From Promethearchaeota archaeon (GTDB lineage Archaea; Asgardarchaeota; Lokiarchaeia; Sigyniarchaeales; SOKP01), in contig JAHLWH010000176.1 of assembly GCA_019058015.1 (NCBI GenBank), positions 1 to 36,226 of the forward strand: DNA of 36,226 nt, given 5' to 3'. The position numbers and the translations under genes are program-made. Position 1 is the first letter of the stretch. Each line of letters opens with the position of its first letter. Positions 22,076 through 30,749 of the stretch are shown here, piece by piece. Under the pieces are notes generated by a model. The model saw only the letters and a program-made list of their open reading frames with translations. It had not been told where the DNA came from and did not search any database.

Positions 22076-23473
22076 TTAAAAAGAGGCTTCGTTTATTTTT
22101 GGCATATCATCTGCAGATAACGCCTTTTCTATTTCTTCCGTTGGCATCTCATAATCTTCTAGGGCTCCATCCATATATTCTTTATAAGCTAATAAATCAA
22201 AAAATCCATGACCACTAAAATTAAATAGAATTGTTTTTCTCTCTTTATTTTCCTTAGCTTTTAATGCCTGATCTATTGCTTCTTTTATCGCATGGCATGT
22301 TTCTGGTGCAGGTAATATATATTCTGTTTTGGCAAATAAAAGTCCCGCTTGTATAACATCTGTTTGATGGTGCATAACTGATTTTATGACTTTATTCTTC
22401 AATAAAATAGAAAGGATAGGTGCCATTCCATGATATCTTAATCCTCCCGCATGAATTGGAGATGGAATAAAGTTATGACCTAAAGTATACATCTTTACAA
22501 TAGGTGCCATCTTTGCCGTATCTCCATAATCCCACATATACATTCCTTTGCACAGACTTGGACATGCTCTAGGCTCAACAGCGATCATTTCCGTTTCGGG
22601 GTATACACCCCTTATCTTTTCTCTTATAAAAGGAATGGCGGTTCCAGCAAAATTTGATCCACCTCCAGCACAACCAATTACAATGTCAGGATATTCTCCT
22701 ATTTTAGAAAGCTGGGATTTCACTTCCTGACCGATTACTGTTTGATGTAAAAGCACGTGATTTACAACACTTCCTAAAGAATATCTAATAGATTCATCCC
22801 TTAAGCAATGTTCTATCGCTTCAGATATTGCAAGTCCTAAACTTCCAGGATGATCATTATCTTTTTTCCAATATCTCCTTCCAGATTCTGTGAATTCTGA
22901 TGGACTAGCATGTACTTTGGCATTAAAAATTTTCATTAAAATTTTTCTTCCTGGTTTTTGTAAAAAACTTATTCGAACCATATACACTGTACATTTTATT
23001 CCAGATAAATTACAAGCTAAAGCTAAAGCGCTACCCCATTGGCCTGCACCTGTTTCTGTCACCATCTCATTAATACCTTGTTTCTTGCAAAAATATGCTT
23101 GTGCAAGTGCAGTATTCAATTTGTGACTACCAGTTGGGCTTACTGATTCATTTTTATAAAAAATCTTTATATTATCTCCTTCTATTCCAAGTTCTTTTTC
23201 CAATCTGTATGCTCTATGAAGTGGTGTAGGTCTTCCTATAGATGCATACATTGCTCTTAAATCATTTGGGATTGGAATTGAGTTTTCTTGTGATACCTCT
23301 TGTAAAACACATTCCTTTGCGAAAATCCTCATTGCTAATTCGGGAGGAGCTGGTTTACCATCGGCAGGATTGACTAATGGTGTCATTGGAGTTGGTAAAT
23401 CTGGAAGTATATTTATCCATTCTTTTGGTATTTCACTAGTTGGCAATATTATTCTGCTATTAAATAAATCCAT
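22076..23473 (-). CDS. trpB2: Stand-alone tryptophan synthase beta chain, type 2
   Basis: GRPTPL.RA, PTGSHKLNTA (PLP Lys), TETGAGQWG, GGGSNF, HAGGLRYHG, APE..H, SGHG; GAAGGAG SD is spaced for the ATG at 23473 rather than the TTG at 23479. Confidence 0.95.
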   Translation of the reverse strand: MDLFNSRIILPTSEIPKEWINILPDLPTPMTPLVNPADGKPAPPELAMRIFAKECVLQEVSQENSIPIPNDLRAMYASIGRPTPLHRAYRLEKELGIEGDNIKIFYKNESVSPTGSHKLNTALAQAYFCKKQGINEMVTETGAGQWGSALALACNLSGIKCTVYMVRISFLQKPGRKILMKIFNAKVHASPSEFTESGRRYWKKDNDHPGSLGLAISEAIEHCLRDESIRYSLGSVVNHVLLHQTVIGQEVKSQLSKIGEYPDIVIGCAGGGSNFAGTAIPFIREKIRGVYPETEMIAVEPRACPSLCKGMYMWDYGDTAKMAPIVKMYTLGHNFIPSPIHAGGLRYHGMAPILSILLKNKVIKSVMHHQTDVIQAGLLFAKTEYILPAPETCHAIKEAIDQALKAKENKERKTILFNFSGHGFFDLLAYKEYMDGALEDYEMPTEEIEKALSADDMPKINEASF

Positions 23474-23515
23474 ATTCAATTCTCCTTCAATATTATTTTT
23501 AATATTACAATTTAT

Positions 23516-23532
23516 TCACATCTAAGATGTGA
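23516..23532. promoter_or_regulatory. 17-bp palindrome TCACATCT-A-AGATGTGA in the trpB2 leader (operator or RNA hairpin)
   Basis: Perfect 8-bp arms, read directly; about 40 nt upstream of the trpB2 start. Confidence 0.5.
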
Positions 23533-23659
23533 TTCATCTCTTATTAGATCTTAATAAGAATAATGCAGTTTTAGGATGCGAAATAGTTATTATAAACTAT
23601 TTAAGTAATAGTTAATAAAGTTGCAAGATTAAACTAAGGAAAGACCAATGCCAATAGGC

Positions 23660-23737
23660 TTATCGACACCAACACCAAGCCCACTGCCAACGCCATGAGC
23701 AATTAAAAAGACTACAATTAACTTCCTTAATTTTCAA
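23660..23737 (-). CDS. Candidate Trp-rich leader peptide (25 aa) upstream of trpB2
   Basis: TTG AAA ATT AAG GAA GTT AAT TGT AGT CTT TTT AAT TGC TCA TGG CGT TGG CAG TGG GCT TGG TGT TGG TGT CGA TAA = MKIKEVNCSLFNCSWRWQWAWCWCR*; same strand as trpB2, ending 186 nt before its start. Confidence 0.7.
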   Translation of the reverse strand: MKIKEVNCSLFNCSWRWQWAWCWCR

Positions 23738-23832
23738 GCTTTTTTAACTAATTTTTTTATAATTTCCTAATATTAAAATATGATATTCTTTAAAATATAA
23801 AAATCTTTTTTTTTAAAAACAAAATTAGAATA

Positions 23833-24237
23833 TTAGACTCTGCTTAGAATTTCTCTGATTTTATTTGCGGCGATTCTAAATACCTTCACTGTTTTCATCA
23901 TTGTTTGAATAATAGTTCCTGCTCCAACTAAAACGAAACGACCGGCATTTGATACAATAAAATAACCTGTTTCTCCTCTTACAATTATTTCATTAATATT
24001 TTCTCCAAAAAGTGAGTTCATTGCGCTTCTCGCTGTCATTAGGATTGCCGAACTTAGACCTCCAAATCTATCTCCATCCATTTTATATTGTGGGAGACAA
24101 CTGAAAGCTATGACATATCCTTCTTGGCTTACAAGCGCTAGTGCCTCTATTTCGCAATTTGATGTGATAAAAGTTATTTGAGGGGCAATTTCATCAATAA
24201 CTCGCTGGTCTAATCCTAGGTCGGAACCGAATTGCGT
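23833..24237 (-). CDS. Roadblock/LC7 (MglB-like) protein; probable ACG start (134 aa)
   Basis: The in-frame upstream extension supplies the roadblock helix 1 and IEALALVSQEGYVIA strands; the C-terminal half reads EIIVRGETGYFIV. Confidence 0.88.
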   Translation of the reverse strand, partial: TQFGSDLGLDQRVIDEIAPQITFITSNCEIEALALVSQEGYVIAFSCLPQYKMDGDRFGGLSSAILMTARSAMNSLFGENINEIIVRGETGYFIVSNAGRFVLVGAGTIIQTMMKTVKVFRIAANKIREILSRV

Positions 24238-30640: not shown

Positions 30641-30749
30641 CGGACCTAGGCGGATTTGAACCGCCGACCCTCGGATTAGAAGTCCGATGCCCTATGTACC
30701 CATTTGAAGGTCTTAATAAATCTTTAAATCCAGGCTAGGCTATAGGTCC
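30641..30749 (-). tRNA. tRNA-Arg(UCU) with a 34-nt D-loop intron (30696-30729); CCA not encoded
   Basis: Acceptor GGACCTA/TAGGTCC, anticodon arm TCGGA-CTTCTAA-TCCGA, T arm GGCGG-TTCAAAT-CCGCC; removing the insert restores GCCTAGCCTGGATAGGGC. Confidence 0.93.

Follow-up and report, generated by a model that had tools for sequence, protein, structure and literature searches.

A conserved tryptophan-codon leader upstream of trpB2 in Loki-type Asgard archaea, a candidate ribosome-mediated attenuator

Introduction

Leader-peptide attenuation is a textbook bacterial mechanism, and it needs ribosomes that travel close behind RNA polymerase. In the trpL attenuator of Escherichia coli, a short translated open reading frame (ORF) in the 5′ leader of tryptophan (Trp) biosynthesis genes carries clustered Trp codons just before its stop codon, the stop and the last Trp codons lie within RNA helices, and a U-rich tract is found downstream. 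Here, we describe a leader of Asgard archaea that shares these features, based on a Trp-rich ORF upstream of the trpB2 gene in a 36,226-nucleotide (nt) stretch of DNA from a Promethearchaeota archaeon of the class Lokiarchaeia (contig JAHLWH010000176.1, positions 1 to 36,226, assembly GCA_019058015.1), which as a whole is referred to as the window. This ORF has not arisen by chance and is a divergent copy of a family-wide RNA and leader-peptide element. In other Loki families, the likeness to trpL extends to a hairpin and then a U run directly after the ORF. The Asgard leader has no sequence or model similarity to bacterial trpL, is found in a setting of archaeal RNA polymerase and termination factors, and differs in its layout: its Trp codons, up to six, are each separated by another codon (W-x-W), whereas trpL has two in tandem; its fold is a three-way junction enclosing the whole ORF, for which no 2:3 antiterminator was found; two extra hairpins (H4 and H5) follow; and ~110-190 nt separate its stop codon from the gene. 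The Asgard leader is bacterial leader-peptide logic in another domain of life, built on an unrelated RNA architecture.

Several other regulatory systems invite comparison. TnaC is likewise a Trp-linked leader peptide, in which the position of the ribosome decides factor-dependent termination in unstructured downstream RNA, and the U/C-rich, G-poor linker behind the Asgard leader recalls a factor loading site; TnaC, however, senses free Trp via the nascent chain and induces a catabolic operon, whereas the Asgard genes are biosynthetic and what is conserved in their leader is the set of UGG codons. The trp leader RNA bound by TRAP in Bacillus subtilis also contains regularly spaced triplet repeats, but the Asgard repeats are UGG rather than (G/U)AG, have a period of 6 nt and lie inside a conserved ORF, and no TRAP homologue was found in the window's genome. 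TrpY provides Trp-dependent control of archaeal trp genes by binding DNA at promoters, in contrast to the translated ORF and RNA helices described here, whose compensatory changes occur partly within one genome. Searches of Rfam 15 gave no match of the window leader to Trp_leader or any other family at the gathering score and no relevant match at E <= 1 for three relatives (L050, L082 and L111), and no match to a T-box riboswitch at E <= 1. Mycobacterial leaderless short ORFs with Cys codons, located upstream of matching pathway genes, are reported to be attenuators that sense the amino acid (bioRxiv 10.1101/834739); these are bacterial and leaderless, whereas the Asgard leader has a 5′ untranslated region of ~30 nt and Shine-Dalgarno-like bases (GGU or UGAU) in its outer helix, P1. 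Upstream ORFs regulate genes in archaea too, as a tool paper states in general terms (PMC10219788), and a review considers archaeal polarity likely due to FttA (PMC12548453). In the literature searched, with subscription journals outside its scope, neither an archaeal Trp leader peptide nor leader-peptide attenuation of any archaeal amino-acid operon was found, in keeping with a preliminary description of the window, made from the sequence alone, whose author knew of no such system in Asgard archaea.

Results

A Trp-rich ORF precedes trpB2 in the window

The leader ORF of the window (23660..23737, (-)) starts with TTG, has 25 codons encoding the peptide MKIKEVNCSLFNCSWRWQWAWCWCR, ends with a TAA stop codon and is located 186 nt upstream of trpB2. 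Its C-terminus reads W-R-W-Q-W-A-W-C-W-C-R-stop, with TGG at every second codon, five in all, and two more TGG codons follow the stop in frame. The ORF listing and a direct reading of the sequence confirm the preliminary description on these points, and the G-rich island that it placed in an AT-rich spacer is equally apparent, as GC is 0.42-0.48 across 23620-23709 vs 0.08-0.22 on either flank. TGG makes up 1.05% of codons in the long ORFs of this genome. When 9,881 small ORFs that precede long ORFs were ranked genome-wide by enrichment in a single amino acid, the window ORF came first (binomial P = 9.9e-8), and nothing convincing as a leader peptide for another amino acid was found among them. 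The sole other alternating-W stretch of the genome, on contig C175, was rejected as a second Trp leader, being an off-frame reading of a D-G repeat within coding sequence. The leader stretch has a single occurrence in its own genome. Three genomes of the same genus carry the spacer at 94-98% identity and retain all five TGG codons, an identity too close for conservation within the genus to be informative.

The gene behind the leader (22076..23473, (-)) encodes a TrpB-like PLP (pyridoxal phosphate) enzyme of 465 aa from an ATG at 23473, with a Shine-Dalgarno-like GGAG (23482..23485, (-)) 8 nt upstream of this ATG. Its product has a Pfam match to PALP and is of the TrpB2 type, scoring 655.9 bits on NCBIfam NF009057 (curated cut-off 366) and 610.2 bits on TIGR01415 (cut-off 518.85), vs 146 bits on the canonical trpB model TIGR00263 (cut-off 392), which bears out the original assignment as trpB2. 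Orthologues of trpB2 are present in 102 of the 121 genomes of the order.

Relatives conserve the Trp frame

Reading the upstream regions of the 30 best trpB2 orthologue loci revealed a short ORF with a terminal W-x-W-x-W pattern ahead of its stop codon in 24 of them. Outside the window's genus, these leader ORFs start with ATG and have 15-19 codons, as in MATVNNWAWRWQWPWRWR and MATGNYYFWQWPWSWL. No W-rich ORF was seen in the other six (L023, L025 and L027 from one genus, L036 and L041 from another, and L045, which is N-masked), and these were excluded from alignments A2 and A3. A covariance model built from 15 leaders (R1; match threshold E <= 0.01) yielded 102 matches in 95 of the 135 genomes of the family, mostly one per genome, and in a separate scan it matched 90 of 126 family genomes vs none of 24 genomes from six other families of the class. 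As a W-rich leader was seen by eye in six of seven family genomes that have trpB2 but no R1 match, 95 of 135 is a lower bound. No further R1 copies beyond chance-level matches were found in G000, G001, G002 and G004.

For a closer comparison, 99 R1 matches, one per locus, were aligned (A5); they come from 100 sources, of which the window is the only one without a match at E <= 0.05, and L018-L020, L080, L083 and L085 were not included. The Trp frame is open from the start to the core TGG in all 99 copies, vs 39 and 41 copies for the other two frames. The aligned start triplet is ATG in 94 copies and GTG in three, the start and the core TGG are 27, 30, 33 or 36 nt apart (a multiple of 3 in 98 copies), and the stop lies 4-6 codons past the core TGG in 89, with TAA (56), TAG (29) and TGA (14) all in use. 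An ATG-started ORF in the Trp frame was detected by script in 96 of the 99 copies, and direct reading gave the leader ORF of L102 as MIENDFFLGWQMPWRY. The relatives have 2-6 Trp codons per leader ORF, and the interleaved residues vary (R/C/S/H/Q at one position, P/A/S/T/L/Q/H at another) with TGG constant. Codons for the pathway product are clustered in a short 5′-leader ORF throughout, the window copy having 5 TGG in 25 codons. This frame, together with its start, its spacing in codon units and its three stop codons, indicates that the leader ORF is translated.

The window also contains an overlapping ORF for a hydrophobic 20-residue peptide, MALAVGLVLVSISLLALVFP (23634..23702), the MALAV frame, whose existence the preliminary description had reported while asking which of the two frames homologous leaders conserve. 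The homologues keep the TGG frame (99 of 99). In the window's genus, the MALAV frame takes its ATG from the codons TCA-TGG, and this ATG has no counterpart in other genera. The hydrophobic ORF was rejected as a conserved product, since just ~40 of 99 copies have its frame open and it lacks a start codon in other genera.

At the nucleotide level, the Trp region of the window (23652-23700, (-)) and of leaders in other families forms a hexamer repeat, NUUGGC, and UGG(G/C)CUUGGC is kept across four families beyond what W-x-W coding needs. The exact 20-base core motif occurs in 42 records among 185,579 species genomes: in 32 of them, all low-GC contigs, the leader ORF is followed by TrpB2 (28) or TrpD (4), and ten are without leader context and come mostly from high-GC bacteria. 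Most of the 32 contigs bear the title Promethearchaeota or Promethearchaeia, Loki_b31 and Loki_b32 among them, and some carry other Asgard labels; the initial impression of an Asgard-like source fits these titles. Two bins labelled Bathyarchaeota and WOR-3 (L172 and L190) contain a Loki-type leader and trpB2 at 67-70% identity, and their contigs look like mis-binned Asgard contigs.

The leader is tied to tryptophan genes

By comparison of coordinates with the orthologue list, blastp and a reading of L072, 87 of the 102 R1 matches were placed 112-186 nt upstream of trpB2. Another 13 lie upstream of a trpD-trpC-trpF operon (TrpD 422 bits on TIGR01245, Glycos_transf_3 ~300 bits, IGPS 216 bits), one is in another context (L093), and one is at a contig end (L085). 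At the 87 trpB2 and 13 trpD-trpC-trpF loci, the element is upstream of, and on the same strand as, Trp-synthesis genes, and its presence before trpD-trpC-trpF ties it to tryptophan supply and not to trpB2 alone. Two copies were found in six genomes, and in four of these (G069, G117, G112 and G144) there is one copy at each type of locus. A genome of the window's own genus, G003, has a canonical leader before trpD.

Some loci deviate from this arrangement. At five of the 13 trpD loci, which represent several genera, an ORF of 80-90 residues without a Pfam or NCBIfam match and with an N-terminus like M-x-EEKLISKK lies between leader and trpD (L097:443-682:+, L105:433-687:+, L102:1815-2063:-, L095:1789-2049:- and L070:1640-1909:+). 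The leader copy in L093 (G013:C17) encodes MKAINCLFSFWFFFWRF, which is Phe-rich as well as Trp-rich, and precedes a 71-residue ORF and a CxxCxxCC-domain protein, with no trp gene. Contig G051:C50 has two copies of trpB2, at 67336-68958 and 83315-84941, each with its own leader and H4 module. Upstream of the window leader is a gene for a Roadblock/LC7-domain protein (23836-24081, (-)), a neighbour that also stands ahead of the leader in several relatives.

The leader RNA folds around its ORF

Single-sequence folds combined with alignments first suggested three helices. P1 is an outer helix around the whole ORF, whose 5′ strand in the relatives lies 5-6 nt upstream of the ATG, where it holds the only Shine-Dalgarno-like bases, and whose 3′ strand lies ~15 nt past the stop. 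In P2, the region of the start codon (GGCAACUG) is base-paired to the middle Trp codons (CAGUGGCC), and the hairpin P3 spans the last Trp codon together with the stop. In the 15-sequence seed, 86.8% of alignment cells are paired vs 82.6% in shuffled alignments and 28-46% when partners are slid. The larger A5 gave 84.2% vs 76.9% in shuffles, none of 500 attaining the observed value, and 33-51% with partner columns slid, and two-sided changes occur in 157 cells vs 46.8 in the shuffles. In P1, all eight pairs show two-sided changes, one of them being A-U in 37, G-C in 35 and G-U in 8 copies; in P3, 91.5% of cells are paired and four of six pairs show two-sided changes. RNAalifold applied to plain MAFFT alignments recovered only P3, or P1 and P3, because the 5′ strands were misaligned in them, and the structure was then supplied by hand.

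In the window, the minimum free energy (MFE) fold of 23628-23740 (-) has an energy of -30.7 kcal/mol (z = -2.48), matched in stability by 4 of 200 shuffles. Its core is the 10-bp stem of 23686-23677 with 23661-23652 that the preliminary description had drawn over the third Trp codon and the stop, here delimited by sequence and MFE fold as a central stem with the 5′ strand CAGUGGGCUU (23676..23686, (-)) over the third Trp codon and the 3′ strand AAGCCUAUUG (23652..23662, (-)) over the stop codon; P3 is the equivalent helix of the relatives. The stem was initially likened to segments 1:2 of trpL, and this holds only loosely: the stem is present, but in the relatives it is part of a three-way junction. 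The MFE fold also contains the equivalent of P1, with a 5′ strand at 23722..23733 (-) that contains UAAGGAAG and a 3′ strand at 23631..23642 (-) that contains CUUUCCUUA, corresponding to AUGGUUUA/UAAACCAU in the relatives. In the same-genus genome G001, a change from TAG to TAA in the 3′ strand of P1 turns a G-U pair into an A-U pair.

The constraints on this region could also be read as those of a TnaC-like arrest peptide, in which a nascent W-x-W-P-W sequence would sense free tryptophan and arrest the ribosome at or near the stop, the arrested ribosome then setting the fate of the transcript. Such a peptide would account for the constraint on the non-Trp positions, where Q, P and R dominate, for the recurrence of W-(P/A)-W across families, and for a stop located within 1-2 codons of the last Trp and inside a hairpin. 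Much of this conservation is explained, however, by the position of the conserved non-Trp codons in P2 and P3, and a specific nascent chain is difficult to reconcile with non-Trp residues that vary while TGG is kept and with a Trp codon number that ranges from 2 to 6. The controlled genes are moreover biosynthetic, and sensing of charged tRNA is the known logic for such genes; a TnaC-like spacing motif was not seen, although no search was aimed at it. We regard arrest by the nascent peptide as quite unlikely, and consider the Trp codons themselves, read by the ribosome, the better candidate for what is sensed.

A U tract follows the leader and a TATA-like motif precedes it

The linker after P1 is composed of 50% T, 29% A, 14% C and 6.5% G. 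Of 93 leaders, 73 have a run of at least five T, vs 20 with a run of at least five A, and for runs of at least six the counts are 39 and 3; the first T5 run lies at a median of 11 nt after the element. Two extra AU-rich hairpins occur in the linker of the window, one at 23595-23613 (-), AACUAUU...AAUAGUU, and one at 23491-23514 (-), AAUAUU...AAUAUU, just ahead of the Shine-Dalgarno sequence, and neither was seen in other genera. On the upstream side, a TATA-like motif, RRNTTTWTAW, clusters 53-66 nt before the leader ATG in the relatives, and counted from the start of the element the same motif gave 74 matches at 41-60 nt upstream in 65 loci, with almost none in the H4 region. The window has a predicted TATA-like promoter motif with a transcription factor B recognition element (BRE), AGATTTTTATATTTTA, at 23790..23805 (-), ~66 nt upstream of the TTG by sequence reading. 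This positioning upstream of the leader suggests a single transcript from the leader through the gene.

A second RNA module, H4/H5, accompanies the leader

The U tract is followed by H4, a long hairpin whose top is conserved in sequence (UAUUGAUUUCCAAUA) and whose lower stem covaries, and then by a short hairpin, H5. Among 21 sequences, 82.1% of H4 cells are paired vs 74.9% in shuffles, none of 500 reaching this level, and 34-52% with partners slid. A covariance model of H4/H5 (R2), seeded with 21 of 31 sampled segments since the other 10 were wrongly anchored, detected H4 in 108 of the 135 family genomes, one or two per genome. All R2 matches that were compared by coordinates lie at leader loci (G021, G068, G124, G129 and G153 are among the matches outside this comparison); L082 and L107 are examples of the module in relatives. 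The hairpin is also found upstream of trpB2 where there is no leader match, as in G009, G020 and G084. In the window, the module spans 23505..23575 (-), with H4 at ~23566-23533 and H5 at 23531-23517, and is the sole R2 match in the genome (40.3 bits, E = 1.2e-4). H4/H5 belongs to the trp-leader system and could be an expression platform or a protein operator.

Genome G144 has two leaders with different self-complementary H4 stems, GCGUUU/AAACG and GCAUUAAU/AUUAAUG, which argues for RNA pairing and against a DNA operator. For this reason, and as there is no TATA-like motif at H4, its interpretation as the trpB2 core promoter or a DNA operator was rejected. A second small ORF starting from an AUG in the 3′ strand of H4 was rejected as well: the AUG becomes ACG or AAG where the pairing partner changes, so that the constraint is on pairing and not on coding. 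An anti-H4 switch, in which the CAUUGG junction strand or the UUGG codons would pair with UCCAAU of H4, is unsupported, with only 1-5 compensatory cells. H4 covaries locally, from AUUG/CAAU to UUUG/CAAA or GUUG/CAAC, and the junction strand does not follow.

A conserved RNA module at trp leaders also bears on the reading in which the UGG repeats, with their NUUGGC period, bind a Trp-activated protein as in TRAP or tRNA-Trp as in a T-box, the reading frame being incidental. H4 is sequence-conserved, found only at trp leaders and able to serve as a protein operator, it persists in some genomes without an R1 leader match, and the repeats have a strict 6-nt period with nucleotide-level conservation of UGG(G/C)CUUGGC across families. 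A pure binding site, on the other hand, would not be expected to have an ATG, indels of 3 nt, a frame open in 99 of 99 copies and interchangeable stops, and other families keep only two UGG codons, still with ATG and stop. No homologue of TRAP (PF02081) was found in the window's genome, which is 94% complete, although the B. subtilis control was found, and the leader gave neither a T-box nor any other Rfam match at E <= 1. We therefore consider it very improbable that the repeats act purely as a binding site, and favor a leader that is read by ribosomes.

Simpler leaders occur in other Asgard families

Upstream regions of trpB2 from three other families of the order showed an ORF ending in W-(P/A)-W-x-stop in 12 of 13 cases, the exception being G032. 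For the majority of these ORFs, the stop codon is part of a strong hairpin, either in its loop or in its 5′ strand, and most of these hairpins are followed by a U4-5 run; in one family, the stem base takes in the first Trp codon, and U5 comes directly after it. The stems covary (GCUCUAG/CUAGAGC vs GCUCUAA/UUAGAGC). Because the Trp codons and the stop are on the 5′ strand of a hairpin that is followed by a U run, this design fits attenuation directly. Across the phylum, an ATG-started ORF ending in W-x-W was present in 21 of 53 regions from outside the family, as compared to 0 on the antisense strand and 0.4 in shuffles.

Discussion

By sequence comparison, the Trp frame is conserved and evidently translated, and it is combined with RNA helices, a strand-specific U tract and a link to Trp genes. 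We believe that this leader is likely a ribosome-mediated Trp-sensing leader, with premature termination probably as its read-out, and we infer from its arrangement that the ribosome stalls, how termination comes about and in which direction the system responds. Oligo-U is an archaeal termination signal at which aCPSF1/FttA assists, and the window's genome has an aCPSF1/FttA orthologue (890 bits). In the proposed mechanism, transcription would start ~30 nt upstream of the leader ORF, and a ribosome would translate the leader while RNA polymerase moves ahead. When charged tRNA-Trp is plentiful, the ribosome would finish and leave, and the leader would fold into P1, P2 and P3, with P1 enclosing the ORF and covering the ribosome-binding region, P2 joining the start region to the Trp codons, and P3 covering the last Trp codon and the stop. 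The folded leader would then lead to premature termination in the U-rich, G-poor tract, through intrinsic oligo-U termination and/or with the assistance of aCPSF1/FttA. When tRNA-Trp is scarce, the ribosome would stall at the Trp codons and hold the structure open, and transcription or expression would continue into trpB2. Stalling could possibly be linked to read-through by steric exclusion, the ribosome sitting within the loop of P1; by a trailing ribosome that stays on the start site, a site overlapping the 5′ strand of P1, the constrained spacing of 27-36 nt between the ATG and the Trp cluster being about one ribosome length; or by a read-out through H4/H5. Tentatively, and with somewhat less than even confidence, we propose that the element may be an Asgard (Loki-type) ribosome-coupled transcription attenuator, in which the ribosome on the leader decides if the structure and U tract stop the polymerase.

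A number of observations weigh against this interpretation. To our knowledge, hairpin-dependent termination has not been established for archaeal RNA polymerase. An all-against-all scan of alignment columns found no antiterminator pairing with covariation, only weak UUGG/CCAA candidates with few compensatory cells. In a nearest-neighbour model, the mean pair probability of P1 is 0.62 for the free RNA and 0.60 with a ribosome footprint on the Trp codons, so that P1 is predicted to form with or without the footprint and a thermodynamic destabilization of P1 by a stalled ribosome is unsupported. P2 is paired in only 74-83% of cells, with one position unpaired in 62 of 99 copies, and the pair counts of A5 are biased in favor of the structure, since this alignment was fitted to the model. 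The preliminary description had suggested testing whether variation is confined to non-Trp codons: TGG is indeed kept while other residues vary, but the interleaved codons (CAG, CCU, CGU) are also rather conserved, and together with the conservation of UGG(G/C)CUUGGC this leaves room for a peptide-specific or protein-binding role. With regard to expression, no RNA run was found to contain this stretch, and in run X20, a possible metatranscriptome, one 290-nt contig lies within the trpB2 coding sequence and carries nothing on the leader.

The window copy itself is the least canonical of all, and its peculiarities add to these difficulties. It starts with TTG, its sole canonical start, and has no ATG; it has 14 codons ahead of the first Trp vs ~8 in the relatives; the 5′ strand of its P1 falls within the ORF; its linker has no T run of at least five, as judged by sequence reading and by a scan of the window for bacterial-type terminators, which found nothing in the leader; and its R1 match (23634..23730, (-)), the only one in the whole genome, scores just 22 bits (E = 3.4). 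These features would be expected of a decaying relic that has lost the regulation of trpB2, or of a sequence that mainly encodes MALAVGLVLVSISLLALVFP or a free W-rich peptide. The gene content of this genome could be taken in the same way, as no TrpA and no IGPS over cut-off were found in it, at 94% completeness, and the sole Glycos_transf_3 match, in a 431-residue frame on C143, is a weak 61 bits, and so could the few substitutions among the four same-genus genomes, which are synonymous or conservative in the MALAV frame and turn a TAG into TAA. The same substitutions are equally compatible with the Trp frame and with P1 pairing, though, and 94-98% identity is too little divergence to judge decay. 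The MALAV frame, for its part, is not maintained beyond the genus. All four genomes keep the five TGG codons, P1, the central stem and H4/H5, and the spacing between the TATA-like motif and the TTG equals that to the ATG in the relatives. We thus consider a loss of function, or a main role in encoding another product, unlikely. With its Trp codons, P1, central stem, H4/H5 and promoter spacing retained, the window ORF is probably this lineage's version of the conserved Asgard (Loki-type) tryptophan leader.

The genome of the window seems to keep trpB2 without a trp operon, and its trpB2 probably works alone, for example in indole salvage. The presence of the leader before such a gene suggests that TrpB2-based indole salvage, too, is adjusted to the supply of tryptophan. 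Elsewhere in the window, 30641-30701 (-) has an Rfam tRNA match of 38.9 bits, yet ARAGORN reports no tRNA in the window; this tRNA may be atypical or intron-bearing.

In total, a conserved Trp-codon leader with its own RNA family stands before two trp transcription units in ~100 Loki-type genomes, and simpler versions of it are found elsewhere in Asgard archaea. If our interpretation is true, this would be the first amino-acid attenuator in Archaea, and it would provide direct genetic evidence for regulatory coupling of transcription and translation among the prokaryotes most closely related to eukaryotes. A further implication would be that RNA structure can govern archaeal termination, and that the trp-specific H4/H5 module is a second sensing or expression platform. 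The leader sequences make the translational control of archaeal termination, at oligo-U and by aCPSF1/FttA, accessible to experiment, and the leader would serve as a natural Trp-responsive switch in those few Asgard strains that are in culture, and it marks unannotated regulatory RNA in these genomes.

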